Assembly (NCBI GenBank): GCA_010015585.1
Contig: ML975150.1
DNA: 64,000 nt
Direction: 5' to 3' (one strand)
Source of the DNA: Eremomyces bilateralis CBS 781.70
Lineage: Eukaryota
The translations under genes were made by a program, and so were the position numbers. Shown here piece by piece: positions 9,942-64,000 of this stretch (positions are counted from its first letter, which is position 1; each line of letters starts with the position of its first letter). Below the pieces are notes generated by a model. It worked only from the letters and a program-made list of their open reading frames with translations, was not told where the DNA came from and did no database searches.

Positions 9942-10408
9942 ATGAGAGTTGAGATGATCAGAATCATGCTCTAGAAACTACTGGTAGGTCTTTGTTTCAT
10001 GAGTAGTAAAAGTCATGATGAGAAGAGGTTCTTGTTGCTTCATCAGATATTGACCGCGATATGACACCCGGTTCCAGAACAAGGAAAGGGCGATTTCGCC
10101 GAAGTGGCGAGTGAGATCATGAAAGGGAAGTCGCGAATCTAAAACACCTGCCAATGGCAGTAGAATGTAAAGGAACGAGAGGCTATAAAATCCATGTCGA
10201 TAGGAAGAATATGTGTACAGCTGCCGTGAGAACAGAATCGATTCGCTTTTGAAGATACTGGCAATGCTCGGGAACTGCCAGAGGAAAATCGTTGATGTCA
10301 AGACGCTAGGGGCAAGAAACACTCGCAAGGCTGACAGGGACGCTAGTCATCGAATTTCCGGAAACAGAAGAATTGACTGGAAGTATAATAGTGCGAAACA
10401 GCGTCTCC

Positions 10409-41300: not shown

Positions 41301-41996
41301 AAGATCCATACATAGTAGTACATTTGGAAATAATGCCATTGTGCAGAAGCTCAAGACCTTGGTCAAGGGGTCGAGTGCATTCGATATATCGGATCGTAGG
41401 CTGGCCTGGGAGCATATGGACGGGAGTCGGGACCGGTCTGATAGAATGATGCACATTGCACAGTGCTCTGCAGGTCCCAACGGATGTCGGATAGGGCAAG
41501 CGAATAGAAGGGAGCATTAGGATATATGACAGTTGATTGAGACTTATATTTGGCTTTCCCATGCAAATAACATGTTCGGCAGTTCAGGCTTGTGCTTGTG
41601 ATCGCCAGCCTCTTCGACTTCATACGGGTAGTTTCACTTATCAGAGTGGCTTTAAGGTGTGGGAGTTCATCATTAGCTGAACAAGTAGAATAATTCCGAA
41701 TAATTCCGTCTCCTTGATTGACTTTTTAACACATCGCATGCCTGATGCCTCCCGTTGGCGGTCGCAGGCCCTGTAGCTGGGGTTTTGGAGATGTTGAAAT
41801 CCCTTATCGATAAGAATTTTTCATCCTCCCCAGTCCCCATCTGATTTCGGCTGGAACACATCAGAGTCTGTGAATACGAACACGCAAGATTGGAATTTGT
41901 TAGCCGCATGATTTTATGCATACGCAGTAGTCCTGGAAGACTTAATTCTCTTCTATTTCGTTTTATCTTCCCGCCTAACCCATACCGACCGGCGCA

Positions 41997-43388
41997 ATGA
42001 CATCATCAGAGGAAACATTGCCTGTTGCTGCGGTATCACTGAGAATCGATGAGGCCGCTGAGCGTGCAGCTCAAGGGGATGTGAAAGCAGAATTATCTTC
42101 TTCCGAAAGTCCTGAGCAATCCTCAAAGAGTCCAAATACCAAGGATGTTGACCGCGATGCCTTCGTTCCCGCCCTTCCACCGCTTCTGGCGGACGCTGGA
42201 GAGAAGTCCATCGACGAGCAGCTCAAAGACCTTCAGTCCCATCCTATGTTCATGAAATCCCTACCCAATGAACCCAATGAATTTGTCGAAGCTCTCCAGG
42301 CTATGGCCTACGAGGGCACTCGTGCCGAAGTCGCGGCCAACTTCCGGGAACAAGGCAATGATTGCTTCAAGACGGGCCACTGGCGGAATGCTGCGGAATT
42401 CTACACCAAGGCCATTGACCACCTGATAAATGGTACGAGTGAAGATGGCCAGAAGAGTGATGAAAAGGGCAATTCCGCACCACAGGAGGAGGAGGTAGAA
42501 GAAGCAGAGATCGAGCTTCCTCGTCTTGAAAACGGGGAGCCGGTACTATCACCTGAAGAGGAGAAGAAGGTCGAACATGCACATTTACTAGCTTGTTTAT
42601 TGAACCGGTCCTTATGCAATCTGAAGTTGCAGAACTTCCGATCGGCCTCATTGGATGCTAGACAAGCCCTTGTACTTGACCCATCCAGTCTCAAAGGCTA
42701 TTATCGGGTTGCATTGGCGCACTACCATCTTTCCGACCCGAACGGTCCTTCGGCTACTCCCCTAGATCATTTAAAGAGCTCCAAGGAGGCGGCGAATAAA
42801 GGGCTGAAGGTACATCCGAGCGACAGAGACCTGGTAGCCCTGTCCGAGAAGCTTCATGCACGCGAGAAACAGATGTATGACAAGGGGCAGAAGAAAATCC
42901 AACAGCAGCAGAAGAAGTTCACCAAAACCGCTATTCTCAAAGCTGCTCTCACTTCAAGAGGCTGGGTCATAGCGGATACGGGGCAAAGACACGGACGACC
43001 GGACCTTGAGGATGCAGAGATCCGTCTAGACGACCCCAACGACCCGAAAAGCGAGCTAAGCCTTCCATTGCTTGTGCTCTACCCATTAGCAGCGCAGTCG
43101 GACTTTTTGAAACAAGTGTCAGAAGCCACCAAGATCGGTGAAGTTATAGGTACTGTGCTTGAAGAGCGGCCGTTCTGGGATACCAACGCAGAGTACGCCC
43201 CCGAAGCCACTGAGTGTTATGCGGAGAGTGCCAAAGGGAGCATGCTGAAGTTGGGGAGGAAAGTGAAGTTGGAATCGGTGCTTGCTGGCGGAAAAGTGGT
43301 GTTGAAGGATGGGATGCTAACTCTTCATGTCGTCCCTAAATCCGGGGTTGACAGCTGGCTTGAAGAGATTAGAAAAAGACGACAATGA
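41997..43388 (+). CDS. CNS1: Hsp70/Hsp90 co-chaperone Cns1/TTC4 (TPR domain)
   Basis: HPMFM..ALQAMAYEGT..EVAANFREQGND, TPR repeats, LYPLAAQSDF C-terminal domain. Confidence 0.93.
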   Translation: MTSSEETLPVAAVSLRIDEAAERAAQGDVKAELSSSESPEQSSKSPNTKDVDRDAFVPALPPLLADAGEKSIDEQLKDLQSHPMFMKSLPNEPNEFVEALQAMAYEGTRAEVAANFREQGNDCFKTGHWRNAAEFYTKAIDHLINGTSEDGQKSDEKGNSAPQEEEVEEAEIELPRLENGEPVLSPEEEKKVEHAHLLACLLNRSLCNLKLQNFRSASLDARQALVLDPSSLKGYYRVALAHYHLSDPNGPSATPLDHLKSSKEAANKGLKVHPSDRDLVALSEKLHAREKQMYDKGQKKIQQQQKKFTKTAILKAALTSRGWVIADTGQRHGRPDLEDAEIRLDDPNDPKSELSLPLLVLYPLAAQSDFLKQVSEATKIGEVIGTVLEERPFWDTNAEYAPEATECYAESAKGSMLKLGRKVKLESVLAGGKVVLKDGMLTLHVVPKSGVDSWLEEIRKRRQ

Positions 43389-43834
43389 GCGTCTGCCTGA
43401 ATGTCTCTCAAGTGAGTCCGGGATGGGATTATCCTATATCCTCGCCGGGGATGATGAGAACATCTTCGCTGGCGCATACGTCCACCCTCATCTACCTTAC
43501 TCCACATCGATCTCGTACGTGTTGGGTTGACCTTCTGGTACAACATCCAACACTTATCAAAGACTAATTGTTGAGCATAAATGCTGCTTATCCCATTGCT
43601 GTATGGGTCAGCACAAAGCAATCTCAAGTATAAGGGCGGCTCTACGCTCTCTACGGACACGTTTGCCTTGATTCTCATTACACCATCATTCAGATCACTT
43701 TTGATAATTCCCCACGCCCGTCGCTCGACAGATCATTTCGCTACGCCCCGTCGCTATGCTCCTCTCCCTTGTCTATACCCGACTGCCTTAGTTGGATCTC
43801 CCTCCGCTCTACATCAATCCTCGAGACCCTCATA

Positions 43835-44090
43835 ATGGTGACGGGAAACAGGACACGCTCTCGCCCCAAAAAGCATACTTCGCGAGATTCCGCGTACTAC
43901 GAATCGCTCTATGCCGACGACCTGACCCTAGCGTTGCGCCCCATCACAGACGCGACCGAACAAGGAGTTCGCAAGGCGTGGAGGAAGTGGACAGAGTATG
44001 TGCTCTACGACAGGAATTCTCATGGTTCAACTACTTATCGCTCTGATCAGATATTGTTCACTCCGAGTCCTTGACCCGATCCTTATATGC
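43835..44090 (+). pseudogene. Truncated N-terminus of a possible DUF3435 captain recombinase
   Basis: MVTGNRTRSRPKK...ITDATEQGVRKAWRKWTE|YCSLRVLDP, intron 43996-44050 in the same E|Y position and phase as the 3137 relic; followed directly by LINE sequence. Confidence 0.4.
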
Positions 44091-45290
44091 AAGCAGAGAA
44101 CAAATCCCTCCAGAATGAAATACGCAAGCTTCAGGAAACCATCATCGACCTTTCTGAGCAGAGAGGCCAGAAATCGAGCCTAACATCATCGTCACCGCCT
44201 TCGACTGGTGCTCGGTCATAGTCCTCGTTATTCACGGGACGATCATCTATATCGCCGAACAGCTCAGCGTCGTAGCAGAGAATCGCAAATCCAAGTTAGC
44301 TACCCGGAGTGAAATCGATCTATCTCATTGCTATGGCCCGGTCCCCACGGAGGCATCGAAGATCAAGGAGCGGATGACAACAGCCTTGCATGCATACCAG
44401 GTGACCAAGGATGTACAGCCCGTAGCGATTATCAAAACCAATAGGGACCTTCACCGCGTCCGTGTGGTAGCACGGAATGAGCAAGACGGAGAACCCATCC
44501 GTGGAAACCCCCAATGGCTCGATAGTCATTTCGAAGGCGGGCGATTACGAGGAGAGCAATAGTACCCGGTAAAGGCGGACAGGGTGGACAAGCTCAAAAT
44601 CATGAATAAAATGCGAACGGCCCTCAAGGACGGCTTGGAACAAGAACTCAGTAAAGAAAACCAAGTGACGATCATGAGAATCGCTACACTCGGGAAACCA
44701 GCAGCACATAAGCTTTACTGCTCCATCGTGGTGTATGTCAAATATAAAGAGGAGGCCGAACGGCTCATCAGCGAGAAAATCATGATTATCTTTGCCGAAG
44801 CCGGATTCACGATCCGATACGAATACAGACCGAGGGTTACGCGCTGTTTCAAATGTGTCAGGAGTATGGACACCAAGCATACCGGTGTCAGAAAGCTCAA
44901 TGATGCCTAAACTGCTCGCAGGAAGGCCACCCGATGTGTATTGCGGACAGCCCACGATGCGTCTCATGCCGGGGCCCCCACAGGGCAGACGACAGAGGAT
45001 GCCCGGTATACCGTGAACAGCTAAGACGGTTATACCCAACCCATAAGTAGGCAGTTCGCCGTGCTGCAGCTCAATATCCAAAGGAGAAAGGAAACATTCT
45101 GGAGCGTTCTTAATGACGGAAAACTGAAGGAGTTCAGCGCGATTATTATATCAGAACCAAGCGTCTTTCTAGACAGCTCGGGTCGAATCGGCTCATCTCC
45201 GATATAGCACCCGGAATGGTTTCCGATTCTTCCAACGAACCCTTTGCAGGAGTGGCCTTATATCAGGAGCATGATCTTGGTTGATCGAAG
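44090..45290 (+). mobile_element. Degenerate Tad1-like LINE fragment: ORF1 (gag) plus start of ORF2 APE endonuclease
   Basis: Coiled coil, GEQ*YPVKADRV, three CCHC knuckles (CFKCQEYGHQAYRC, CLNCSQEGHPMC, CVSCRGPHRADDRGC), then VLQLNIQR..ND..IISEP; stops and frameshifts; no RT domain seen. Confidence 0.9.
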
Positions 45291-46016
45291 CAAGCCCTTC
45301 TGGACGGGTGGGACGACTACAAAGACAGGACAGGCAGACTGGTATATGGACCCAAAGAAAAGTGGAAGCCAGACACGGGCTCGTGGCACCAACCATTGCG
45401 TATGCCAAGGCCACCAAGAGACTGGATTATGAAAAGGATGTAGCATGACCTCAACGACGTGAGCCTCTATGTCTTTGGCGGTTATTTTCACGGCTTAGTG
45501 GTCGACTGCTGGAGAACTCTGCAAAGATCTACTCTTAGCAAGCCATTGTTGGCATACCAATAGGCTCGTGTGGTTCTCAGGACATCCGCGTTCCTAGTGC
45601 GAGATCCCTTAGACGTCAGGGTGTCATGGGAGATGTGCCCTAGGGATATCTTTGTTCAGCAGGTGTCCTTGAACAGCAAGTGTCATACTGCCGCAGGTGT
45701 CCTAGTACATCAGTCAGCCACTTTAGCACCAGGACCCATTTCTGGTGCCGTTCTCGTATCTTTAGAAATGACGTCGACGATGTATCTTTTGCATCCTGTT
45801 TCCCGGTGAACCCGTCCCAAAGGGTCCCAAAATTGGGTTCCCAGATTTCGGGAACCCAAAGCAGGCGCCGACCACTTCCTAAAATTAGCACCTTTCCCAT
45901 CCCCCCTCAAATCAGTCCCTCTTCACCTTGGGGACAGATATACTTACGAATCGTCCTGATCACACCCCCTTTTTGTGAGTTCTGCAAGAATTACGGAGTC
46001 AAATTGATGGTCGGTA

Positions 46017-46225
46017 TGGCCCGATCCATTGAGAAAGCGGCAAAACCAAAGCGCGATAGGACAAACGACAACTTTAAAAAAAGTGTAAATGGATTCCTTC
46101 TGCGAGGTGAAAAACTCCGAGAGAAGTATCATGCCGACGTCTATATTCTTATCCGTCGTGAGCGGGAGCTCTACACCTATAACTCCGGCAGCAGATGATG
46201 GGTTCTAACCAAATATGAAATGGTA
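46017..46225 (+). pseudogene. Small MADS-box (SRF-like) domain gene relic
   Basis: NFKKSVNGFLLRGEKLREKYHADVYILIRRERELYTYNS resembles the MADS core; TGA at 46196 before a GTAAGT donor. Confidence 0.55.
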
Positions 46226-46411
46226 AGTAATATCCCGACGGAACTAGTGACGATTGGACTTGATAACTGGGAATGGTTTTCTGTCAGGATTGCAGTTTGG
46301 GACATCTGCTGCTCGGCCATCAGACGCATCTGAAATGATGGCACACTTTCCTGGATCTACTCAACTTCCTGCGAAACCCCCGCGTCCATTCGATTCAATC
46401 AATCGAAGAGC

Positions 46412-47000
46412 ATGGAGAAAGTCAAGAAAGACGCGTCAAAATTCAGGCCAATCTTACAGGACCTGGACGCCAATCAGGTCTACCTCCTCCACGTTGACCG
46501 CCATCCGGTGCCACACAAAAAGATCATCTTCTTCACAGCGGTGCTCATCAATCTGACCGTCCTCGCACTGCTCATCGGACGTGTCGTCTACGTCTTCCCT
46601 CTGTACCGGGCCATTTTGCTTGGACGAGAGTGGGTACCGGACGCGCAATCGTCAACCACCTCCATCATCATTCGGCGGACCTTCTCCCTTCTCATCGACT
46701 CGCCGTTGATTCAATACGCCTGGCGATGGCCATACACCTTCTTCCTCGAACGATTGCATGGGCAATGGACCAACCCTGCAGCATGGCGCCTGGTTTCTGA
46801 CTTCCGCCTGTCGGAACTGGTTGTGCGCAAATCTCGAAACTGGGGTGCCAAAGACGTCAGAGCTTCTATTGATGAGAGCCCATTGTTCAAATCGCGGGTG
46901 TTCCCGTTTGCTTCGGATCGCTATTTGCGAGAGAAGACTGGATACTTGATGCAAGGGAAGGGTTAGGATCTGGATTACGCCACGATGATTTGGTCGACGC
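46412..47000 (+). pseudogene. Fungal membrane hypothetical protein, truncated
   Basis: YLLHVDRHP..KK.IF plus TM helix...KTGYLMQGKG*DLDY; TAG at 46964 where TGG (W) would fit; sequence diverges afterwards. Confidence 0.6.
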
Positions 47001-47706
47001 GGGCCAAGTTGGAGATGGATTCAGATCGGCCCGTCCTGCTGGTGCCTGACAGGAAGGGTGCATGGGCGGCGCATTCATTGGAGTAGCGCTGGCGGTTCCG
47101 ACACCTCAATTCCTTGTCCATTCACGCGTCAGCATCGTGGGCCGCGCAGATCAACTGGCCAGGCCTCCTTCGGTGCGTGTCCGCCGCATGATGAGATGGC
47201 CTTGATCTGGACGGCGCCGGCATCTTATGCATTCATGGTTAACCACGGCCCCTCGTTGGCCATGTCCGGTAGCCGAGGACCTTAAGGCAAGGAACGTGGT
47301 GCATGACATCAGGGGATAGCACTTCCAAGGTCGTCATGGGTGTTGGTCGGCGAGGTCTCGCCATGATCGCGCACAGGATGGGTGAGAGAGTCGACGCCGG
47401 ATACGAAGTTCACGATTGCAGTCATCAGCGGGAAACAACTCTAGTTTAAGAGGGTTTGTTCTCATGATTCTAATCGTAGCATTGGTATAATCGTAATGAA
47501 CCCCGTTGCTGAACCCCGACTACTCGTACATAGACACACCAGCCTGGAGTGATACAGCCGCGGCTCGTCCATCACTTTGGACAACATTTTGGCCTCCACG
47601 CCAGCTTCTGCATGGTTTGGCAAGAGCGACACACCAGCAGTGGAAGCCGCAATGTGCTGATCGGCCTTGCCGCTTCAAGGATACTGCTTGAGACTCTTCA
47701 CGAGTA

Positions 47707-50309
47707 TCACTCCAGCCGTTTCCAGAGCAGACTGCCCATGGCCAGGACCGAAACGCTCGAAAACGACATCAACGTGCCCGCCGTTGAGCTGTCCATGGTC
47801 AGCGATTGGAACTGGCTGCATGGTTGCGAGAACTTACGGCGTAATGACAATGTCAAATGGATGTAGAAGCCCCGATGCCAGTGCGAGGGCCACCACGTTG
47901 TACGCCATGGAATACCACACGTTGAACTTCGCTTGGGCGGTGACCTTCTTCGAAATTGAAAGCAGCTTGGGCAGCGCGTTGAGATCCGGCGACACGATCA
48001 TGGCGTCCGCAGCACCGGCGTTACTCGCCCAGCTGGACGCCAACAACACCCCCGCATCGGCGGCGGCCTGTGCCAGCGTATCGTTGATGCCGTCGCCGAC
48101 CATGACCACTTTGTGCCCTTTGGATTGCAGGTCGCGGACGCTAGCTTCTTTTTGGTGGGGAGCGGATCGGGCACCGAGGATGGGAATGTCGAGTTCCTTG
48201 GACACCCGTTGGGCTTCCTCGTCGACGTCGCCGGTGAGCTGTAGTCAAGTCAGGGGTGATAATGCTGCGAGATGGAGAACATACAATCAACACATGATAT
48301 CCACGGTTCTTCATCTCGGCAATCACACTCAATGCTTCGTCGCGAACAGTGTCCTGCTTGGTCAGCTCAGCCATCCAAAGCTCGTCAACGACATACCTGC
48401 AGCGCCATGAATCCACCAAACTCCGAGTTGATGGCAAAGTAGACCGCCGTTGTCCGTTCCGATGATGGAATGTCCGCGTCCATCGCGATGCCATGCTCCT
48501 GCAAGAACGCCTCACTCCCAACATGCACATTAACCTCCTCCCCGTCGACCTCCATCCGACACTGAATCCCCGAACTCACGACGGACCCGTTGGCGGCCCT
48601 CCCGCTAAAAGTTCGCTCTTCCATGTTCAGCTGCAGCAGGGAATATTGGAAGACGGCCTTCGCGATGGGATGTCGCTGAGCATGAGGAGCCTCGGCCGCG
48701 GCGAGCATTCGATACACTTGGTGGTTGGTCCATCGACGGTTCGGTTGGAAGTAGACGGAGGAGACCCGCACTTCACCGGTTGTCAGGGTCCCGGTCTTGT
48801 CGAGGACCACATGGGTGATGCCCGCCAATGCCGCCATGGTTCGTGCGCCACGAGAGATGATGACGCCGTTTCGCCAGCCGGCGTCTAGGAGCGTTAGCGA
48901 CGAAATGGCTGTGAGGAAGTGCTTACCGATTCCGATCATGACGGCCGAGGGAACCGCCAAACCCAAACCACACGGGCATGCCGACGCAAGAATGGCCGCC
49001 GACCGCTCCATGGCGTAGACAATCTGGTCCATGGAGAGATCTAAGGGGTGGAGGAGGAGGGACGCCATCGGAAGGGCCGCGATGAAGAGGACCGTCTTGA
49101 CGAAGACGGACAAAAACCATCCGATCCCATCCTCGCTTTCAGTCTTGTAGTCGATAGCCGTGGTGATGCCATTCACCAGCGACATCAGGAATGAATCCGT
49201 CTGTTTCTTGTAGACGATGGCGGTCAGCGGGCTCGACAGGTTCCTGGTACCTGACAGCAAGAAATCGCCCGGCTTCTTCACGATCCGGGCGGACTCCCCG
49301 GTGACCGATGACTCGTCCAGCAGCGATTCTCCATCGATGATGTAACAGTCACACGCAACCAGCGACCCCGGGCGAATCCGAACTCGATCACCCTGTTGCA
49401 AAAGGACCGCCGGCACATATTCCTAGTCGATGTCAGCCAAGCCCTTACAAACACGAGACGACGAACCCGAGATTCTTCCAACCACACCAACGAATCCTCC
49501 GCCTGCAGTCGGAAGAGCGACGTCAACGACGACTGACTCCGTCGGCGAAGAATGACGTGCACCAGACGCCCACCAGTCACGACGACAGCCAGGAAACAGG
49601 TCGACGTGAACCGGGAGCTTCCACCCAGACCGAACAACTTCAAGATCAACAGGGCGAATCCTAACAGGAGCGAAAGACTGATCAAGGCGTCCATGCTCCC
49701 CAGACGCAGCCGACCACGAGGCCACGCGCTCTTATGAATCCAAGCGGCGTCCTTGAACAGCACCCATGCCGTCAACCCCAAGAGGAGGAGCGTGGCGAAC
49801 GACTGGACGCCGTCGTACTGTCGCGCCGACCATGCCATGGCTTCGACGGTCGCAACGACTGACGACACGAACAGCGACGACATGAACCTCCCGCGCAGCA
49901 TCCGCAGCTCCTCCGTCCGTTCCAGCAGCTGAATATGCTGCTCCGGTGTCCCCTGCCCGTCGAGCGTGTCGTATCCCAGCTCTTCAATCGTCTTGCGAAC
50001 GGCGGGCGCGGTGATTTGTTCCGAATCGCAGAAAATGGACGCGCGGCTCAACGGGTACGACACCGAACATCGCAGAATGCCCGGAGTCTTGTGCAATGAG
50101 CTTTCAATATCTTGCGCACACGACACGCAGGTCATGCCCTGGATGTGCACTTTTATGCTCGACGACGACTCCATCTCCTGGTCCTCCGACCCGTCGAAAT
50201 AACCCCGATCAAAGACATTGTATTTGATATCGAATACCTTGATATCCAGATCATCGCACAATTGAATGAACCGATTCATGGCATACGCCATGAAGACGCA
50301 GCAAGCCAT
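47707..50309 (-). CDS. P1B-1 heavy-metal (Cu+/Ag+) transporting P-type ATPase, single HMA domain
   Basis: GMTCVSC, TGES, ACPC, DKTGT, HP, LTGD, GDGIND, YN and MSFSS; five GT-AG introns join ORFs 49278-50309, 48385-49416 and 47834-48205 to ...WKRLE*. Confidence 0.92.
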
Positions 50310-50833
50310 GACGATGGAAGCGCCTCCGGCTGGTGGTCGGACTTCCTGGAACGATTAAGGCTGGGGCAACCATGTTGAAGGTGACGGCTAAATCACGACA
50401 AAATGTTGATAACCAGCACCATGTCATAAAATCCTACTCGACTGCTGATGAGACGACAAATTCACTGTCACCGGCTATCGGAATAGCGGGGCGCAGGTGC
50501 CCATCCGCACGCGCCCATTGGCATGCGCGCCCTGACGCGTGAGGGAAACCTTTTCCCCGCAGTGGAGCCGTGGTGGAAGTGGACCTGGAACATCGCCTTC
50601 ACGGACGGATGGAGTGAAAATACTCAAGTCCAACGCTGCGCGAGCCATCTTGAGACGGCTATGCAGTGCGGGGATGTCGATGGCGCGAGTCATCATGTTG
50701 AGATGGGTTCGTATTTAGGTGGAGCGGTCCACCGCTGTTGGGGACGTTGTTCCCATCGATCCAGAGAATGAGGTTCGTGCTAGGAACGTCACATCATCGA
50801 GACATCCTTTGATAGGAGCGTGCGAATTTGGAG

Positions 50834-53005
50834 ATGGCTATTATCACGGTAGATCATTGTCACCAATGTCGGGGAACAGCCACTGACATCCTCAGACCAC
50901 CACCACGGTGAAGAGCGAGAAGCAGCTCGGAGCGCGAGCCTTGACGGGCACCTTCGACTGGAAGGGTAAGGATATCTCCGGCTTCAACATCCCACGCACT
51001 CACATCCACAGATGTCCTCATCCCCCGCGATGCCGGCACCGGTGTGACCAAATGGTACTACCAGCGCCGCACCATCTACCAGTACGCCCTGGTGGCGGGC
51101 CTGGGTCTTCTGACCTTCTACAATTCGGAGAACCCTCGCATGCGCGCGGCGGCGCTCGGCGTCCTCTTCCCCGGCGCCGGTTTCATCGCTGTCGGAACGA
51201 TCTGGTCCGTCCTCGCCTTCATCGTGTCCACCGCGCTGCTCCCGCTCCTCCTCTTCGCGTGGTTCGCGTCCGGCGGCGTCAGTCTGCCGCTGGCTCTGTA
51301 CCTGGGAGACATCCTCCTCGCCGCCGCCATGGCTGGCAAGCCCGTGCTGGAGCTGGCGGCACCCCTCTGGGTGACCATCGTGGCGGTCGGCATCTCGGTC
51401 ATCACCTTCCGCACCCTGAACGCCAACAACGAGGCCCGCGAGCGAGGCAAGAAGCGGAACGAGTACCTGATCTCGACCGTCCAGGAGATTCAGCAGCAGG
51501 GTGTGTCTTCCCAGGCCGCTCCCGGGACTCGGGAGATGGACCTCGACACTCTGCGATTCCTGCAGTGGACGCTGGAGATGGGCCTTGCTCCTCGGGACGA
51601 CTGGTCCTACCATGATGTGATTGATCAGTTCCAGACCTCCGCCATCCGCTACCAGTTGTACGGTGGTGGCTGGGATCTGGCCCTCTATCAGTCCATCTAC
51701 GCCCCCAACTTCCACGGCTACCTGTCCCTGGCACAGCGGAACCTCATCGAGAAGTCCCTGACCAAGAAGGTCATGAACTTCTGGCAGTGGGAGAGCCTCT
51801 TCGTAAGCATCGCGCCGTAATCACCACGTCCACGCTAACAATCGCAGGGCAAGTTCAAGACCATGGACATCGACCCCATCCGCAAGGACAACATCGTGCG
51901 TCCCCTGAGATGATAAATGACCCGGCTAACCTCCTCGCAGATGGTGTCCGGATATATCCTTTTGTCGTGCGCTCTCTACCAAGCCAACACGGGCGACAAC
52001 CGCTACACCAAGCCCGGCAGCCTCGCGTTCGAGGTCACCCACAACGACGTCTACAAGTACGACATCCAGAGCGTCGCCGAGCTCGTCTTCTTCAACATGG
52101 ACCAGAACCCGTACACCCTATACCCCTGCGAGCCCAACTGGGTCTACGCCATCTGCAACCTCATCGGCGTTATCGGTCTCCAGGCCTCCGACCGCGTTCT
52201 CGGCAACAAGTTCGCCGATCGTATTCGGGAACGGTTCGAGTCGGCTCTCGAGCGCGAGTTCAGCAACGCCGACGGCACCATCCTCCCCATCCGCAGCGAG
52301 CTGACCGGCTTCACCATCCCCGGCCTCGCCGGCACCATCTCCGACGCCAGCGTGTGTATGCAGGGCTCGCCGTACATCCCCGCCATCGCTCACCGCAACT
52401 GGGCCTTCATCAAGCGTGAGAACCTCAAGTACAACAAGGACGGCAAGCTGGAGCTCGTCGGCCTCATCGGTGCGGACAAACTCGACCCCGGCAACTACAA
52501 GGAGGGTGTCGGAGCCATCCGCGCCAACCTTGCCGCCGTGGCCGCCGAGTTCGGTGACGCGCAGATCGCCCACGATCTAGTCAAGCAGGTCGATGAGGAG
52601 TACCATCCCGTCAAGGAGACCAAGAGCGGCTCCCGCAAGAACCAGGGTCTGTCCACCATCCTCCACGGTTCCACCCTCCGCGCTCGCATGTCCGGTTTCC
52701 AGGATTGGTCCAACCTCGTCGGCAAGGGTATTCCGGAGATCACCCGCAGCGGCCCTATCCTCGAGGAGGTTACGTTCCCCGACGTCCTAGTCGCCAAGGC
52801 GTACTCCGTGGACGGCGAGTCCGTCGACCTGGTCCTCTACGACGGCAAGGCCCCGGGTCGCTTCCAGCTCGGCTTCACGCAGCTCCGCCCCGGCGCCACG
52901 TACTCGCTGGGAAAGCAGACCGCGACCGCCGACGAGGAGGGCCACGCCAGCTTTGAGCTGGAGATCCGCGGCCGCACGGCCGTGAAGCTGGAGCCCGTCG
53001 CGTAA
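50834..53005 (+). CDS. Membrane-anchored linalool dehydratase/isomerase-family protein (~662 aa)
   Basis: Exons 50834-50848, 50896-50965, 51012-51802, 51848-51895, 51941-53005; N-terminal hydrophobic helices; DQFQTSAIRYQL, DPIRKDNIMVSGY..LYQANTGDNRY, CEPNWVYAICN. Confidence 0.85.
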
Positions 53006-53222
53006 AAGCGCGGTGTTCTGGCAATGCGGAGTTTCACAGGGATGCATTTCTGTTCTTTGTCGTATGCGGCCTTGGTTTCTGCGGCATCCCGTGCGCGTTT
53101 TGCCTCCGCCTCTTCTCTTTGCCGCTCGAATACGGATTTCTTCGTAACGCATGCACAGCGGCTGCGTCAGTGTACATGGTGGGCTGTCGGATCGTTCCGA
53201 TTCCAAGTCTCCATACTATCTA

Positions 53223-54230
53223 TCAAACCCTAGCGTTCTTCACAAACTCCTTCCAAGTTGTAGGTTTATCCTCCAAAGCATCTAGGCTCTCCTGTAAGGA
53301 AATTCCGTCGAAGAGTCCTGGCTCCTCAATCAGCAAGTGGTTCTCTAGCATCTCCTGGGCCATCGAGTCCGGTAGGAAGCTCTTATACTGATCCGCGGTA
53401 ACTTGAGTGAACTGGATCTTCTTTCAGGTTACCTCTTCAAAGTCAGCGAGGATCTGTGTCACCGGATAGTAGTCGGTGGCTGCAAAGATCCGTTTGCCGT
53501 TGAATGCGTCTGGCTTCTTCAACGCGGGCTTCACAAATTTACCTAAGACGTGTCAGTGTTTCAGCTCTGCGGAAATGTATATAGGAATGCTCACCCATAT
53601 CCTGGACCGTTTCGACAAGGGGGAACTTTGCCTCCTTGCTGACTGGATATGCAAGGCTGTAGGAGCCGTCGTCGCGCTTCCGCAGCATCTGCAGGTAGTT
53701 GGACATGTAGTAACCTGCCACAACAAAAGTGGCTGGGATCCCCAAGGAGCGGATGTGTTCTTCGATTTCAGCCTTGCTGTCGAAGTGTTTCGCGTGTGAG
53801 AGTCGGCCGCTAGAGATTTGGGTCGCGTTCAGCAGAGATGAGAAAATGAGATGCTTGACTCCGACTTCTTTGGAAGCATCAGCGACGGTCTTCCCTTGGG
53901 CTTTCTCAACTTCAGGATCACCAGTCTCCCAGTAGTTAGTCACGAGAAAGGCGGTATCGGAACCCTTGATCGCAGAGATAATCGAGTCCTTGTGGTTCAT
54001 GTCCGCCTGTAACGAGATAACCACGGAGTTTTCCAACCTCGGGATTTTCGCCCATATTACCGTCACAATTTCAACGCCCTTTTTCGCCAGTGCCTGCGCC
54101 TTAGGCTTGGAAGCGTCGCGAGTCACGCCTCGAATGGAGTACTCTTTCGATAGTTGCATCGCCGAGGATCGCGTCGATCACTGAGCCTCCTTGGATGCCA
54201 GTGGCACCGAAGACCGTGAACTTTTGGCAT
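53223..54230 (-). pseudogene. NmrA/HSCARG-like NAD(P)-binding protein, disrupted
   Basis: VFGATGIQGGSVI, RGVTRD, FLVTNYWE, HFDSKAEIE; two frameshifts in the first ~25 codons and an in-frame TGA (EVT*KKI, ~53424). Confidence 0.85.
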
Positions 54231-54952
54231 CGTCGGAAAATTGGAGAGGTCAAACGCCTGGGATTTCTGGGATAGAATTTAATGTTGATCTCGGGATCGT
54301 GAGTGATGTGCAGTGGAAGGGAACGTCGACTCGTCGAGCACTTGATATAAGACCGCAGTGGAGAGGATGCCATTTCAAATCTGTGACGTCAATTCTTCAT
54401 TCAGCCGGCTCAGTCAGAAGAGCTTCTGTAGGAAGTAGTTCTAGCACGGAATACAACTATTCTTGGCCCTCGTCTTAATCGTTTGAGCAAACCTTTCCGC
54501 GTAGAATTCGTCCACATCTCCAAGTATAGCAAGCATAGGGTACCTCTGTGCTTATGGCCATATTCCATGCTTTAATCAGGTCTGTCGGGCCGTTTTCCTG
54601 TCCTTCTCGGCCAAAAAGTGAATCGATGAGTTGATGTTGCTACAGTCATGCCCGATATCGGCTAGGAATTCTTCCAACGCGGGAGGTTTCCAGATAGGCT
54701 GTTGATGAAATAGGGCTCTGGCAACAGACGGCAATGACAACTATGAAGAGGGAGGAGAAGAAGAAGTCATTTGAATTGGTGCGGGCGCTGGCAAGGATAC
54801 TGAAGTAGGTACAACAGTCGTGGCTGGTGTAGAAGTAGTCGGTATAAAGGGAGGTCGAGGGATTGATACATGCCACAGCAGCTTTTGCTTGGCTGGTAGG
54901 AGAACAAGAACCGTGATAACGACTAGGCTACAGATGGGTGCGTACCATTTCT

Positions 54953-55620
54953 TTAGTTCTTACTCCCGATAACAATGTCCTTTCCGCTGACCGGGTCTTC
55001 GGCATAGATTCGATGATAAACGAATTTCAGAGTGCTACGCGTCCTTCTCACGGCGTCGAGAAGTTCGATGGACAGGTCGTGAAATTCTTCAATTTCTTGA
55101 CGAAACTTGTAGTCGTCATATTGAAAATATCCTCCAACCATTGCTGCGGCGAACAACCGTCGTAATGGATGGGATTTCGGTAACTCTGCGGCGGAACGGA
55201 TGTGCTCGGACGTGAGGAATTTCGTGTTGGGTTCGGTCCTCGAGTTGGGTTCGGTCGTCGAGAATAAATCGTGATATTCGAACTGTTCAGAAGCGTTTTG
55301 ATACGATCTACCACTCGACCTTCCATCCCGGTGACGCTACAGTGGTCCGCAAGTCGGAGGAATTCGACCAGTGAACTGATGGCGTCCTGGGCCGGCAATG
55401 TCCCTAGGCTCACACGTCCCACATATAGCCATTGGAGAAGCATTTCGAAACTTCGAACGGACACCACGCCATCGATCTCGGCCAAGGTGGTCGACTGTTC
55501 GTGGGTCTCCCGAAAATCGCCGCCAAATGTGGCGGCGAAGTACGGTGACTGTTGGCAGATGAGTGCCTCCGTCACCAGGTACTCACGAGAAGATCCGATG
55601 CAAATCTTGACGCAGGCCTG
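54953..55620 (-). pseudogene. BTB/POZ-domain protein, frameshifted
   Basis: LICQQSPYFAATFGGDFRE..SFEMLLQWLY; C-terminal part continues in another frame (ORF 54953-55156). Confidence 0.75.
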
Positions 55621-55984
55621 AGTAGAGTGGAATCATCCTATCTCGATCAGCGACCGGTCATCGGAGAGTGGCGAAATGGCATACGATTTCGCGAAGACAG
55701 TGAAAGGCAAGCGATGGGCCTCCTCCGGACCTGAGCTCGACATATTGGAAGTTGGAAGTCTGAAAGGTGAGCTGGTCGTTCACTCTTGTACGGTCGTGAG
55801 TGTTTGTCACGGATCGAGATTTGGGCCTGGCTGATGGGTGCCTCTGGCACATTTGCAAGCCGGGGACGAGTTCCGCACGGCGGCCAGGCGCACCACGGTC
55901 TCCACTTGTCGAAATCCCGCAGGGGAAAAGAAGTCGTGGGGGAAGTCTGTTGGTTCCCTATTATTGGCCCATGGTGCCCCACGG

Positions 55985-56400
55985 GGTTTGCCCATGCGGC
56001 CACTGTTTGGGCTATTGTAGATTTCCCAGTGCCAGCCAAACCACTCAGCCAGAAGATGCGTTGTGAGGTTTCGCCATTGACCCAATTGTATATGGCGTGG
56101 AGGAGATCGGTACGGGTTCTGGGGAGACAGGTTGGTTCGTGCTCCCGCTTGCGTGTGCTAAACGGTGCGTCCGCAGCAATGGGTAGGATCTTCTGAAGTA
56201 AATCGTTGTGTTCTAATTATGCTTTCAGTTAATCTGTCATCATCGCAAGTTCTAATGCAGAATTACTCACTTGAAGTAGTCTCACTGGAGGCAAAAGTTA
56301 TACTTCCAAGGTTGATGCCAGCAAAGTTCTGGCCTCCATCGGTTCCGGAGTCCGGACGTGTTATGGATGGCAAGATGGTGGGGTAAAGGGCCGCTAGTCA
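55985..56400 (-). pseudogene. NACHT (HET-E-like NLR) N-terminal/P-loop fragment
   Basis: LPIAADAPFS..EHEPTCLPRTRTDLL..IYNW..RIFWLSGLAGTGKSTIAQTVA; similarity stops just after Walker A. Confidence 0.85.
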
Positions 56401-56694
56401 TGAGGGGCTATCACCGCCGTTGCTCTGTGACACTGAAGACATTCGGCGACAACCTGTTATTCTCTTTTCCGTTGATATTGGCATGTTCATTGAGCAAAAT
56501 CGTCGTCAGGCTGGCTGGACTGGCGGCGTCAAGATGCGCGCGATGGTTTGCCGCAACCCCTCTGCATCGTCTCAATGGAAGTGCAGCCATTCAGCCCCTA
56601 AATATAGATAGAGATCTCTTGCCTCTCCCCGTTCTCTCCTCCTGGTTTCAAATAGTCAATTCGCAATTCTTTTTGATATTTTCGTTTGAATAGG

Positions 56695-56847
56695 ATGGAT
56701 CCTCTCAGCATCACCGCCTCAGTAGTGGGAATCACCACAACAGTTCTCCAGAGTGTCCAGGTCCTCGCCAAGACCGTCGACAACCTTAAAGATGCTCCCA
56801 AAACTATACATGTGTTTCCCCTTTCCATGGTCACGTGTAATATTTAA
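56695..56847 (+). pseudogene. HeLo-like/SesA-type fungal NLR N-terminal domain fragment
   Basis: MDPLSITASVVGITTTVLQSVQVLAKTVDNLKDAPKTI then stop after 50 codons. Confidence 0.7.
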
Positions 56848-57416
56848 TGAGCGAGGTTGCTGTGCGTTGCTGGAGGTTCGAGCTAGACCAACGGTAATGC
56901 TATTCTCGCTATAATACGAGTATTAAGATCAATATTGAGTTCTAAGGGTTGCCACCTGTGAAGAGCTCCGATAGACGGCGCAAGGGCGCGATATGATAGT
57001 TGAATTATGTCATACACTGACGATACTACCCCACCATGAATGTCCTCAGGTGCTCAAGGATCCGCAATTCGGCAAAGGTATCTATTCCTGTGCGACTGAT
57101 TATCCGGCTCCCCAAACCAGTAATATCAGAGGTCTCGAATGGTTTTCAGGTCTCCCCGTTAAATTACCTGTATACCGCTGGAACACGTTGGTTTGCAAGG
57201 TTTCATGGACTGCAACTGTCCTTTGACAAGGTTTGACCGAATTCTTGAGAGCTCGCGCTAGACCCCGATAACAAGTAATAACCCCAAGCAGAACCTCCTA
57301 TCGACAGCGTTTAGAACCCTATCCTTTGGGCTTTGAGTCTTTACCCCGAGTCTATGGAGCGTGCATGATTTTCACAGAACACTAGAATCAAGAGTTGCGG
57401 CCAAAGTACTAGCAAC

Positions 57417-60400
57417 ATGCCTGAACGGGGGATCAGAATTGCTATTGACGTATGCCCTCACTTTCCCAGCCTTGTAGCAAATACTGACGAAAAACAGCGG
57501 GGTGGGACCTTCACTGACTGTGTTGGGAACCCCGGGACAGGGAGGATGGAAGACGATGTTGTAGTGAAGCTCTTATCTGTGGATCCAAGCAATTACGATG
57601 ATGCACCCTTGGAAGGGATTCGCAGATTATTGTCTAAGTTCACAGGAAAGGAAATCCCTCGTGGTGAGCCGCTGGATACCTCCAATATCGAGAGCATACG
57701 AATGGGAACGACGGTCGCAACCAATGCACTATTAGAGCGAAAGGGGGAGGACATCGCCCTGGTAGTGACCAAAGGCTTCAAAGACTGCTTAGAGATCGGC
57801 AATCAATCCCGCCCAAACATCTTCGATCTCGCCATCCGGAAACCGGAAGTACTCTACAAGCGAGTTGTCGAGATCGACGAAAGAGTGACTTTAGAAGACT
57901 ATGCGGAAGATCCGGAACGGACCAAGACAGAGTCCAAGCCGATTGAAGAGGCTGGAAAAGATGCTCAGCTTGTCCGTGGCCTTTCGGGCGAAGCAGTGCG
58001 AATTCTTAAACAGCCAGTTGAAGACGAGATACGGTCCCGGTTGAAGGAGGTATATGACTCTGGCTTGAGGAGTATAGCAGTCTGTTTGATGCATGGGTAC
58101 ACGTTCCCTCACCACGAGGCCCTCGTGGGTAAAATTGCCGAGGACATCGGGTTTGAGCATGTCAGTCTCAGTCATCAGCTCATGCCTATGATCAAACTAG
58201 TCCCTCGTGCAACGTCTGCCTGTGCCGACGCTTATCTTACCCCGGCAATCAAGAAGTACATCTCCGGATTCGCCGCAGGGTTTGCAGGAGGCATTGGCAC
58301 AGAAGCTGTCAAGAAGCAAGCGGGCGCGAAAGCTGCCAGGTGCGAATTCATGCAATCGGACGGTGGTCTAGTCGATGTCGACAAATTTTCTGGCTTGCGA
58401 GCTGTTCTATCCGGTCCGGCAGGAGGCGTCGTGGGCTACGCTTTGACATCGTACGATCGTAAAACCAACATTCCTGTCATCGGATTTGACATGGGGGGAA
58501 CGAGCACTGATGTCAGTCGTTACGGAGAGGGGAGATATGATCATGTTTTTGAAACCACGACTGCAGGAGTAACAATTCAGTCTCCTCAACTTGATATCAA
58601 TACGGTTGCGGCAGGCGGAGGCTCGCGGCTGTTCTTCAGGAATGGGCTCTTTGTGGTGGGCCCTGAGTCTGCGAGTGCCCATCCTGGACCCGCGTGCTAT
58701 AGGAAGGGCGGTCCCTTGACGATAACGGATGCAAATCTCTTCCTTGGACGTCTCCTGCCTGACTTCTTCCCAAAGATCTTCGGAAAGAATGAAGATGAGG
58801 GCCTTGATACGGAAGCCAGTGAGCAGTTGTTCAAACAGCTGACAGATGACATAAACTTGGAGGTTGCTGGAGATGACAAGTCTAAAGCGATGTCCATCGA
58901 TGAGGTCGCATTTGGATTTATCAAAATTGCAAACGAGACGATGACACGACCGATCCGTTCGCTGACAGAAGCCCGAGGGCACGATACATCGAGGCACCGA
59001 CTTGCTACTTTCGGAGGCGCTGGAGGGCAGCATGCCGTTGCAATTGCTGAAGCATTGGGTATCTCTCAGATCTTGATCCACCGATATTCTTCAGTGCTGT
59101 CGGCTTACGGCATGGCACTTGCCGATGTCGTAGATGAGAGACAAGAACCGGATTCAAAGGTGTGGTCCGATGATGATAAAGAGATTCGGGATTATTTGAA
59201 AAATAAAGTGGAAGATCTTAAAGCGAAGGCAAGGGCTGGACTCCGTGAGCAAGGCTTCTCAGTCGAGAATATCGTCTTTGAAGAATACCTCAATCTCCGA
59301 TACCGAGGAACGGAGTCAGCGCTCATGATCATCCGTCCCTCGAAAGAAGTCGCTGAGAAGGAGCATGGCGGCGATGACTGGGCGTTCGGAAATGCCTTTG
59401 TCAAGCAGCACGACCAGGAGTTTGGGTTCACTTTGCCTGACCGTGACATTATCGTAGATGATGTACGAGTACGTGGCATTGGAAAGACGTTTGAAGGCTT
59501 GGAACAGACCGTGGATGACCAGTTGAAGGAGATCAAGCCGAAAGACGTTAGCAGAGAAGAAAAGCGATACGGCGAGCGCAAAGTTTACTTCGAAGGGGGA
59601 AGACGCGACACACCCCTCTACAAGATCGAGGATCTCGAGATCGGAGACCGGGTCAAGGGTCCAGCCATACTCGCAGATGGAACCCAGACAATTGTTGTCA
59701 CTCCAGGGGCCAGTGCCCTTGTTATCAAGACTCACGTTATCATCAACATTGGAGAGAGTGAGTTCAAGGACGTGAAGGTCAACACTAAAGAAGTCGACCC
59801 GATCATGCTGAGCATCTTTGCGCACCGCTTCATGGCCATCGCGGAGCAAATGGGACGAGCGCTCCAGAAGACGAGCGTGAGCACCAATGTCAAAGAACGA
59901 TTGGATTACTCATGCGCGTTGTTTGACGAGGATGGTGCTTTGGTCGCAAATGGTATATACTGATGCCACAGAATCTTTGGTGCAACCGCTAACTGCAGCA
60001 GCTCCTCACCTGCCTGTCCATCTCGGGTCCATGTCAACCTGTGTCAAGAAGCAAGCAGCAATCTGGAAAGGCAAGCTGAAAAGAGGGGATGTTTTGGTCT
60101 CGAATCACCCGATGTTTGGTGGCACTCATCTTCCAGATATTACCGCGATAACGCCAGCTTTCAACGGAGACAAAATCGTGTTTTATGTTGCCTCGAGAGC
60201 CCATCATGCTGACATTGGGGGGATTCTCCCTGGTTCCATGCCTCCAAACTCGAGAGAACTGTACCAGGAGGGTGCAGCGATCAAGTCAGAGAAATTGGTA
60301 TCAGAAGGCAAGTTCAACGAGAAGCGAATGGTCGAGCTATTGTACGATGAACCAGCCCAATATCCTGGATGCAGTGGCTCGAGAAGTCTTGCGGACAACA

Positions 60401-61686
60401 TCAACGACTTGAAGGCCCAGGTGGCAGCAAACCAGAAAGGAATCAATTTGATCAGCACTCTGATTGAGGACTACGGCGAGGATGTGGTGAAGTTCTACAT
60501 GAAGAGCATCCAAGATAATGCGGAGATGAGCGTCAAAGCCCTTCTTAAGAATGTCTATAAGCGGTTCGAAGGCAAAGATCTATCAGCCACCGACTACATG
60601 GATGATGGAAGCCCTATCAAACTGAAAGTCAAGATTGATCGTGAGAAAGGAGAAGCTGAGTTCGACTTCACTGGAACTGGACCAGAAGTCTACGGTACGA
60701 GTTACTATATCATCATTTGAACAACACAACTAACACGATACTAGGCAATATCAACGCACCAGAGGCCATCACGTACTCTGCGATCATCTACTGTCTTCGT
60801 TGTCTGGTTTCTGAGGACATCCCCCTGAATCAAGGATGTCTGAAGCCAATTCATGTCAAGATCCCGAAGAAGTCCTTCCTTTCTCCCTCAGACAAAGCCG
60901 CTGTTGTAGGGGGCAACGTCCTCACGGTATGTTTGTCTACATGAATACCGCTGACATGTCGCTAACAGGACGCAGAGTCAGCGAGTCACCGATGTGGTAC
61001 TAAAAGCCTTCCAAGCCTGTGCAGCTTCTCAGGGTGACTGCAACAATTTGACCTTCGGCTTCGGTTCAAACGCAGTAGGGAAAGCCGCCGTGAAAGGCTT
61101 CGGATACTACGAGACCATTGCAGGCGGCTCCGGGGCAGGACCGACCTGGAATGGCACATCCGGAGTCCATGTACACATGACCAATACACGCATCACCGAT
61201 GCCGAGGTCTTTGAGCGTCGTTACCCCGTCATCCTACGCGAATTCAACCTTCGCGCTGGAAGCGGTGGGCGAGGACAACATCATGGAGGCGACGGAGTCA
61301 TCCGAGATATTGAATTCCGCATCCCAGTTCAAGTCAGCATCCTCAGCGAGCGCCGTGTTTACCATCCATACGGCCTGGAAGGAGGTGAAGACGCAGTTTG
61401 CGGGATGAACGTGTGGGTCCGAAAGGTGGAACGGAGCGACGAGAATTCCGACAGCGTCGCTTCAACGACCATCGTCGATGACGATGAGGTGAGGTATATC
61501 AACTTGGGCGGCAAGAACACGGCGGATATGAAACCGGGGGAGAGAATCATCGTTATGACGCCCGGAGGAGGTGGTTGGGGTCCGTTTGGCGAGGAGAGCA
61601 AGGCGCAGAAGCAAGCGGATCCGAAGCTGGCTTGGAGAAAGGGTAGTGTTGCGCTGCGCCAGGATATGGCGGAGGCATCCGCATGA
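57417..61686 (+). CDS. OXP1: 5-oxoprolinase (ATP-hydrolysing), fused hydantoinase A/B
   Basis: [56 protein letters not shown]; four introns. Confidence 0.97.
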
Positions 61687-64000
61687 ATGTCATGAATAGA
61701 TCTCGATATTCGGGACGATTCCGACTTCTAAGAGAGAATAGAATCCCTTCTTCCTCAGTTTTCTCCTATCTTCGGCTTCCAAACAAGGTGCTTTGCTGAA
61801 TCGACGTCTTCGTCCCATTCGACCTCACACCGCTAACAACAACGATCGGCGGGTGAGAAGGAACCAGCCGCATACCAACACCATGACAGAGTTGAGCTAT
61901 CCTGAAGGCATAAACAAGCTAAATTCGACTGCGGTCATCCTGTATACTAGCTACGATTCATGTAGCACAACCCCAAACTTACCCCTATCTTTACAATTTG
62001 GCTGGGCTGAACAGCCTCAAAGTCTGAGTCTTGCCTGCAACGCTTGCGGCTTGTCACTTGTGGCTTTGTGAAAAGTAAGCAGTGAGTAGTGAGCACTGAA
62101 CAGTACTATGTAAGCACATGCAATAATCTGCGCCCCAGTCGCCGTTGTACCTGACAAAGTGATGATCCCGATCGACAATATGCTCTGCTACCTACAGAGT
62201 ACTCCATCCAAGCTTCAGTGATCAGCAACGGCATTATCCACATTAGATATTAAGTACAGTTGCTTATTTTCAATAGTACATAACAAGAAGAAAGTCTCCG
62301 CTTGACTTTTCAATCGCCTCACTATCTCTGACGCTTCTGGCGCGATGCATTTGATGGCCCTGAGTCAGTGTAGTCCCGACATCGCGTTTCCCTGGTTTCG
62401 GCGCTCTGCTAAAATCGCAATGATCAGCGTCAGAGCCATGGCCTTGGATACAGGAACAAGATGGATGTTTCATACTACGATAAATTGGTACTGTAGCAGT
62501 CTCACACACGAAAGGTCAAAGGATGCTAGATGGAGCAAAACTCCTGACTCAGTCCGGGACTTCGGAATCGACAGCCATGGTTCCGTAAGCCAGAGTATCG
62601 GGAATGTACCTTATCATCCCACCCACTTTTACTTCATCACATCGCATACCCGGAATATTGCCAAGTTTAGAGCTTAGAGAATAAGAAAACGATGCACCAT
62701 ACTACATATTAACGTTCGTGGTGTGACAATCTCTGATTACCACCGTCTGCGGAGAGATAACTGCACCACTGTTGCTGTGGCCCGCTAGAGTCACGCAATG
62801 GCACCTGTACAACTTTGAAACCACTGCTATCAAATGTCAACCCACTAATATCAGACTGATAAACGAGACCCGTCGGAACGAATTCGCAGATTCCGAACTC
62901 TCGCCTGTTCGAATTGCACACTTATGAAGATTCAAGGGCACTCCACTGTCACGCTGAATGGTTTCGGTCCCATCAACGGCGGGAGGAACCTCAAGCCCAT
63001 GGCACTGTTTACTGAATATGGCTATGATTGTCCTCGCTTAGCACCAATGAATAGGCCATGTGTTGTCGGGAACTTTCGTCGTATTCGTACCCAGTGAGCT
63101 GAGTGAGGCCTTTTTTAACCTTGCAGGTACCTGCAGGAACCACTTCGACGGGCTCAAGATGGATCTTTTCCCTGACGAATCCCTTCTGAATCGTGATCCG
63201 GATCTCCAGAGTTCAGACAGTTCTTGCCGGACTGCCGGTCCGCTATATCAAGTTCATGACGCTATTGTACGCGCTGGAGGAGGATGATCATCGTTAGGGG
63301 GGATACTGACTGCCACCCGGTTCAACCTTCCTTCAAAGTCGGATTCGGAGCCTTTCCATTAGCCCTGGAAGGTCGAATTCAGACAGCTCCGCCTTGCCAG
63401 GAGTTGAATAACGTCGCATTAGCTCCGGCCAGTTCTCGGAACTTCTAGTTATACCTACAATCAGACACGATCACCGACGGCAGTACTTTTCGTCCAGGCG
63501 ATAGGATTCAATCACGCCACCAGCTCACCCTCGGGGAGTGACGAGGAAAATTCATTCCGTCTCCAGGCTGCTTCCCGAGTCCCGACACGATAATGATCTG
63601 GATCTTCGGATCGTCAAGGGGCGATAATGCGATGCGCCTTGGGGTTGAGGCGCAGGGGAGTGATCGAAAATCGTGCCATTCGCCAGGGCGTCGGTAATTA
63701 CTAAATCAAGAGATGGTGGAAATGGGACGACGTCACAACGATAACGCGACCTGGATTCAGAATGAAGGAAGTAGACCTTGTTGTTGTATTAGTATTGCCT
63801 TGAGTAATGATAGTGGCCGAAGGAGTGCTTGTTGAGCAAAGTATTCCGTCAACAGCAATTCAATATTACCTCAATCCTCCAAGAGCGGGATAATCAGGCT
63901 AGAGGACCAATTGAAATCGCCCAACTGTGAATATGTTCTATTATTGCATATCGCGAATTCGCGATATCAGGTTTGGTACCATAGTAATTCCTATCGACCC

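Follow-up and report, generated by a model that had tools for sequence, protein, structure and literature searches.

A possible Starship remnant around an intact, head-to-head ATPase–Ldi gene pair in Eremomyces bilateralis

We analysed a 64,000-nucleotide stretch of contig ML975150.1 of Eremomyces bilateralis CBS 781.70 (hereafter the window), in which an island of about 13 kb lies between the housekeeping genes CNS1 and OXP1. In order, the island holds a stump of a DUF3435 (Starship-captain) family gene, a relic resembling a long interspersed nuclear element (LINE), a DUF8369-like open reading frame (ORF), a P1B heavy-metal ATPase gene, a gene of the linalool dehydratase/isomerase (Ldi) family, and NmrA, BTB, NACHT and SesA-like pieces. 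Of all these, the ATPase and Ldi genes alone are intact, as a first-pass annotation of this DNA had proposed, and both are spliced in RNA-derived contigs. We take the island to be a Starship-like region, now degraded and immobile, that surrounds an older and still working gene pair, a reading for which we judge the case evenly poised; that this pair travelled as the element's cargo is a more tentative part of it, somewhat less probable than the reading itself. The pairing of the ATPase with an Ldi protein is the more original lead, and does not depend on how the surrounding debris is read.

Four sequencing runs were compared over 41001–61000, contig depths not being read as expression levels. 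Run X1 is DNA of the same genome (baseline depth 157, single-copy across most of the region), run X4 comes from a diverged organism, B, and run X3, whose type is not on record, is presumed to be RNA-derived because its contigs contain spliced joints. There are 11 such joints, of 42–55 nt with GT..AG or CT..AC ends and none of them present in X1 DNA: the captain-family stump and the stretch upstream of the BTB domain have one each, the ATPase has five and Ldi four, and the NmrA relic has none.

The ATPase gene (47707..50309, minus strand) has five introns (47789–47837, 48239–48284, 48353–48395, 48885–48926 and 49422–49465). With these removed as in the X3 contigs it is one open frame of 807 codons, encoding 792 residues from a first methionine that aligns with residue 1 of its relatives. 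A single HMA domain, E1-E2 and Hydrolase (HAD) domains all fall in this frame by Pfam, the best NCBIfam models are TIGR01525 and TIGR01511, and the translation holds CPC, DKTGT and GDGIND motifs, from which the usual motif rules would predict Cu/Ag specificity. The 42-nt intron at 48885–48926 is in frame and stop-free, and the unspliced ORF stays open across it. The Ldi gene (50834..53005, plus strand) has four introns and encodes 662 residues, an N-terminal membrane part followed by the Ldi domain. Its coding sequence, built from the X3 joints, reproduces the public 662-residue protein P0122 exactly (open frame, 668 codons), and PF18566 matches at E 6.9e-56 (190.5 bits against a cut-off of 26.1), with a second piece at E 1.4e-11. 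The earlier description of an intact Cu-ATPase and an intact LDI-family gene is thus borne out by spliced frames, P1B and Ldi domains and introns removed in X3.

The start codons of the two genes diverge across a spacer of 524 bp (50310..50833), presumably a shared promoter region. The arrangement recurs elsewhere. In Saxophila tyrrhenica an Ldi homolog (LTR77_009986) and an ATPase (LTR77_009987) carry adjacent locus tags on one contig, and in a metagenome contig (L001, 10–3467) the ATPase and an Ldi N-terminus (E 8e-40) lie head to head on opposite strands; this was the one locus confirmed among 25 pattern matches in a metagenome scan with P0006. Two further ATPase/Ldi pairs in other genomes are indicated indirectly, by matching lengths of the longest contig. 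A short single-HMA P1B clade is paired with an Ldi-like membrane protein in the window, in L001 and in S. tyrrhenica, and because the same pairing occurs in other fungi the module is older than the island. In organism B, a 38-kb contig is colinear with the DUF8369–ATPase–Ldi block (46475–46594, 47707–50316, 50447–50571 and 51010–53017) at about 84–87% identity, with 425 differences and 22 gaps in 2610 nt over 47707–50316 and 261 differences and 13 gaps in 2008 nt over 51010–53017. The two genes may be co-regulated from the spacer and kept by selection.

The nearest relatives of the ATPase are 34–39% identical and number about a dozen proteins of ~820–840 residues with one HMA domain; named examples are from S. 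tyrrhenica and Macrophomina phaseolina. In a quick LG+G4 tree of 43 rows selected from 121, with support from the Shimodaira–Hasegawa-like approximate likelihood ratio test (SH-aLRT), the short single-HMA fungal proteins form a clade of 13 rows (support 100, stem 0.92), separate from the 7 rows of fungal CCC2 and the 23 rows of bacterial CopA-like pumps. The window protein shares the HMA, E1-E2 and HAD domains of the CCC2/CopA-type Cu(I) P1B ATPases, but belongs to this separate, well-supported clade, is only ~28% identical to CCC2, and has clade relatives of which at least some are paired with an Ldi-like gene. The Ldi family counted 614 representatives at E<=0.001, and the best named relatives among the matches listed (120 of 301) are 55–59% identical. 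The Ldi domain is shared with the linalool dehydratase/isomerase of Castellaniella defragrans (PDB 5HLR, 5G1U), which gives a weak direct match (E 5.7e-7, residues 281–529); the fungal protein is far removed from it in sequence and has ~290 additional residues, a membrane part, at its N-terminus. A full-text literature search returned no report of the short P1B clade with its Ldi pairing, none on fungal Ldi members, and, among the papers listed, none linking linalool dehydratase with fungal copper pumps. The pairing offers a testable clue to what two uncharacterised families do, independently of any Starship.

The evidence for a former Starship begins at the left edge of the island, where 43835..44078 (plus strand) holds the 5' stump of a DUF3435/captain-family gene, its first ~83 codons, with an intron at 43996–44050. 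The peptide from 43835–44071 matched one of 28 longer candidates, P0001 (670 residues, PF11917), a protein of the same genome, at 70% identity and E 8.5e-15, in agreement with the captain-like N-terminus reported in the first-pass annotation. Conversely, tblastn of P0001 against the whole window recovered only its residues 5–57 and 68–83, at 43847–44078 (70–75% identity over residues 5–83); the remaining three alignments had E of at least 2.8. The intron lies at the same place in both genes, the P0001 gene model reading through it, and its removal in an X3 contig indicates that the stump is still transcribed and spliced. The two differ in that P0001 is full length, with its Pfam DUF3435 domain at residues 169–604, and the window copy ends before that domain, without any catalytic part. 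The similarity to a DUF3435 protein, whose absence was to have spoken against a Starship, therefore exists at the level of the gene, while the DUF3435 domain itself is absent. Without a recombinase domain, nothing in the island is able to move by itself.

No other feature separates the stump from CNS1, and it is oriented into the island; captains are described as opening the element at its 5' end and being transcribed inward (Starship criteria as excerpted from PMC9156397). On sequence similarity, the left-edge fragment genuinely comes from a captain-family gene that points inward. The id number of P0001 agrees with erebil1_192051 of the starfish survey, listed in the sections consulted as a 'tyr' gene on scaffold3 in family fam03, Tardis, with three further genes of the same genome in its 50% cluster (PMC11162782, supplement S3/S4 and Table 1); the species is represented there by one genome. 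Across the first 83 residues the stump is 70% identical to this Tardis captain. The stump region is multicopy, with an X1 depth of 633 at 43963 against the baseline of 157, and four separate X4 contigs match 43771–44077 at roughly 85–92% identity. Two of these four end their match at 44072 and 44077, the breakpoint into LINE-like sequence.

That LINE-like relic (44079..45300, plus strand, in a three-frame reading) adjoins the stump to the base. By eye, an ORF1 broken over frames carries a coiled coil and, in two different frames, CCHC-like knuckles; an ORF2-like start is also seen, and the relic ends near 45300 with its 3' part missing. Pfam adds a weak zf-CCHC match (E 0.045) and the Atlas a lead of 0.90–0.91 to clusters with PRE_C2HC/zf-CCHC; no reverse transcriptase or endonuclease family matched among the scanned ORFs. 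For the earlier call of a LINE, ORF1-like features and an ORF2-like start are seen and the enzymatic domains were not found in those ORFs, and we treat the identification, which leans on the eye reading and the Atlas lead, as one of the weaker ones. We suggest that a Tardis-family Starship (or at minimum the captain end of one) may once have lain just downstream of CNS1 with the captain pointing inward, that a LINE-type retroelement would have interrupted the captain after codon ~83, and that a later deletion would have taken the rest of captain and LINE. Such a nested insertion and deletion would explain the missing 3' parts of both.

Decayed sequences also lie to the right of the intact pair. 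An NmrA-like pseudogene (53226..54388, minus strand) is matched by Pfam at E 1.9e-41, with profile parts 1–22, 22–199 and 236–298 in three frames, the last of these at 53226–53423 in a second scan; it has frameshifts near 54160 and 53545, an in-frame stop at 53424–53426 and no splicing. Its region shows extra X1 depth and indel-bearing paralog contigs. Within it, an in-frame 54-nt GT..AG stretch (53983–54036, minus strand) resembles a former intron and is left unspliced in an X3 contig. In the BTB pseudogene (54956..55743, minus strand) an exon-1 methionine near 55743 is followed by a spliced intron at 55638–55684, after which the BTB domain (E 1.2e-6) is out of frame with that methionine, and a second frame break lies near 55300. 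A NACHT stump of a NOD-like receptor (NLR) gene (55810..56216, minus strand; NPHP3_N, E 3.3e-6) keeps only the Walker-A region, positions 12–45 of 164, before its frame breaks, and has paralog depth in X1. A SesA/Helo-like N-terminal stump of 39 residues (56695..56811, plus strand, opposite to the NACHT stump) covers positions 1–39 of 209 of PF17111 at E 3.1e-6 and 27.2 bits, exactly the cut-off. All four had been called relics in the first-pass annotation, and the broken frames and truncated profiles confirm this. X1 depth is 285–450 over 53007–57008, against the baseline of 157, and short additional X1 contigs at the high-depth spots differ by substitutions and 1-nt indels. The raised depth and the divergent contigs imply paralogs of the stump and of the right-hand relics elsewhere in the genome; better-preserved paralogs of the NmrA, BTB and NLR relics are found there.

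How far these pieces amount to a Starship depends on the definition. A Starship proper has a DUF3435 captain, a target-site duplication (TSD), often but not always terminal inverted repeats (TIRs), and an insertion shown by an empty site, and a looser 'Starship-like region' is DUF3435 sequence with DUF3723, ferric reductase (FRE), patatin (PLP) and/or NLR genes and no TSD (both as defined in the excerpts used of PMC9156397). The island has a captain-family N-terminal stump in the expected position and orientation and no DUF3435 domain, and with its stump and NACHT/SesA-like NLR pieces, both fragments, it belongs to the looser class in the loosest sense. The closest likeness is to the degraded Starships and 'Starship-like' regions of M. 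phaseolina, for example 'Derelict', with captain-family sequence beside NLR pieces, no TSD, decay, and cargo outliving the element (PMC9156397, in its passages on that species). Those differ in being tens to hundreds of kb long, against 13 kb here, where there is only an 83-codon stump, no recombinase domain and no DUF3723, FRE or PLP. Degraded Starships and cargo outliving its element have thus been described already, and the island is at most a small, unusually worn example.

Several observations weigh against a former Starship, beginning with the edges. By the published criteria the island fails as a Starship proper, having no intact captain, TSD, TIR or demonstrated insertion. A repeat search of 43300–57500 found no direct repeat or TIR joining the two edges, as in the first-pass annotation; all 14 direct and 20 inverted repeat families were short and internal. 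No TSD was seen between 43.4–43.8 kb and 56.8–57.4 kb, where the exact edges are uncertain and short TSDs could escape. No X4 contig spanned the site, and at 80% or more X4 covered neither CNS1 nor OXP1 nor most of the relics, a gap on which we place no weight. Transfer RNA, 5S and other Rfam families were not found at the edges, and indices of repeat-induced point mutation gave no signal in any part of the island. At ~13 kb the island is also small for a Starship. Type Starships are given as 76–195 kb (PMC9156397, in the part consulted).

Gene content argues in the same direction. A first Pfam scan covered 20 ORF translations, of which ten had families at E<=0.01 (CNS1, three P-type ATPase pieces [HMA, E1-E2, Hydrolase], two Ldi pieces, NmrA, BTB, NPHP3_N and OXP1). 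Of the 204 ORFs 45 residues or longer, the second covered 123, the other 81 having been scanned already or being alternative frames inside ATPase and Ldi; nine of the 123 matched at E<=0.05, of which we kept the NmrA C-terminus, PigL_N and Hydrolase and treated six as chance. DUF3723, ferric reductase and patatin families were absent from both scans of island ORFs, as were DUF3435, reverse transcriptase and SRF-TF. Pfam likewise gives no DUF3435 match on the stump in either scan, because the domain lies at P0001 residues 169–604, beyond the stump. In its supplementary tables, as far as excerpted, the starfish survey gives this genome 15 captains and no delimited element (S8), and places none of the 19 'tyr' rows of the genome on scaffold 2, to which the window is assigned only tentatively (PMC11162782).

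Gene history and setting point the same way. In an Ldi tree of 50 rows selected among the matches listed (quick LG+G4, SH-aLRT), the window protein has a Pleosporales clade as its sister (98), inside Dothideomycetes, and the ATPase-linked Ldi proteins lie in the adjoining subclade, all within one 30-row clade (100). The window itself is placed in a dothideomycete because its Ldi protein is 100% identical to an NCBI protein of E. bilateralis CBS 781.70. Judged from this tree, the Ldi gene would fit long residence or ordinary descent in Dothideomycetes, without sign of recent foreign origin; nor is there such a sign in the ATPase, which sits on a long branch within its own fungal clade. Since gene order is poorly conserved in Dothideomycetes, a distance of 13 kb between two housekeeping genes is not in itself a sign of insertion.

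Three things speak for a former element: the position and orientation of the stump, its membership of a multicopy Tardis-family cluster, and the decayed duplicates on both sides of the intact pair. Against the pair having been cargo are the age of the module, the class-concordant Ldi tree and the lack of any boundaries found. An old head-to-head module and this tree fit host-captured cargo and a resident cluster equally well.

The first-pass annotation had gone further, taking the whole 13 kb as one derelict, immobilised Starship between CNS1 and OXP1 whose ATPase and Ldi genes were cargo retained by selection. The inward captain fragment, the NLR pieces and the two intact genes of that proposal stand; a DUF3435 domain is absent, as are TIRs and direct repeats pairing the edges. 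One event would account for the debris on both sides of the pair behind an inward captain stump, and organism B has both the four captain 5' copies and the 38-kb DUF8369–ATPase–Ldi contig. Metal-resistance cargo also occurs in Starships, for example Hephaestus. Yet the repeat search yielded neither boundaries nor a TSD or TIR, the module is old and its Ldi tree agrees with the class, and in organism B the long captain-bearing contig (5691 nt) is a different one from that carrying the block. We therefore find a single Starship doubtful. A sharper departure is that no Starship was ever here: the DUF8369–ATPase–Ldi genes would be a resident accessory cluster, the stump would have arrived by LINE 5' transduction or as repair filler, and the right-hand relics would be unrelated decayed duplicates. 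This would suit the absence of element boundaries, the stump abutting the LINE-like 5' end to the base, and the similarity to the X4 copies, which begins ~40–65 nt upstream of the ATG (43771–43797), as for a transcript-derived copy. Non-coding upstream similarity would vanish at this divergence anyway, however, and the stump keeps its intron (43996–44050) in the DNA, where RNA-derived copies often lack theirs. The LINE piece, moreover, has no 3' end, the part made first in target-primed reverse transcription, so that a later deletion is needed in any case. We regard this explanation as improbable.

We return to a degraded Starship-like region around an older pair as our reading. It can be extended to a speculative form, to which we give little weight: the block of DUF8369, short P1B ATPase and Ldi-like genes may be a mobile metal-handling cassette of Tardis-family Starships, passed between fungal lineages, with a wreck here, and the pair may form a functional unit not yet described, in which the pump serves an Ldi-like membrane enzyme. 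Organism B has close captain 5' copies and the colinear block at 84–87% nucleotide identity. No paper was found whose main text mentions 'Eremomyces bilateralis' together with 'Starship'. If our reading is right, the island would exemplify an end state of Starships, in which the recombinase is lost to a nested retroelement and deletion, its passengers degenerate, and core chromosomal sequence permanently gains a useful module. Remnants of this sort would be hard to detect, as the survey, in its tables as excerpted, called no element in this genome (PMC11162782).

The remaining features lie mostly on the left side of the island and around it. The DUF8369-like membrane ORF (46412..47088, plus strand) rests on its translation and an Atlas lead of 0.92 (206 of 256 features), and its 46475–46594 portion is the part colinear in the X4 contig. 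It encodes 184 residues (46412–46963; 186 from 46406), followed by an in-frame TAG at 46964–46966 and 39 further open codons (DLDY…HSLE); proteins of the DUF8369 clusters are 230–371 residues long. The ORF, described earlier as a membrane-protein relic, is truncated rather than wrecked. A 63-codon ORF at 46007..46198 (plus strand) had been called MADS-like; it matched no Pfam family at E<=0.001, nor did the longer ORF at 45644–46198 at E<=0.01, and the SRF-TF profile was unmatched for 46007–46195 and for 45644–46198, so that call has no support.

Both flanks of the ~13-kb interval are housekeeping genes by Pfam, as the first-pass annotation had stated. CNS1 (41997..43388, plus strand; start methionine checked) has a Wheel domain (E 3.8e-33) and TPR repeats, and OXP1, a 5-oxoprolinase (57417..61700, 3' end approximate, plus strand; start methionine checked), has Hydantoinase A/B domains (Hydantoinase_A, E 2.2e-101). 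The window as a whole is a gene-dense region of a fungal chromosome with ordinary housekeeping genes throughout, judging by large ORFs and Pfam, among them clathrin light chain, a DEAD helicase, a subtilase, SHMT and a Num1/Mcp5-like protein. Farther to the left, a Tc1/mariner-type transposase ORF at 4725–5780 (HTH_Tnp_Tc3_2, E 9.3e-13, and a weak DDE_3 match) is broken by 210 N at 5531–5740, and a 1079-codon open frame on the minus strand at 6738–9977 matched no Pfam family at E<=0.001. One X3 contig of 13.7 kb (41885–55636) spans CNS1 through BTB with introns of both strands removed, which implies that neighbouring transcripts overlap enough for joint assembly and that RNA-derived sequence extends even over the relics.

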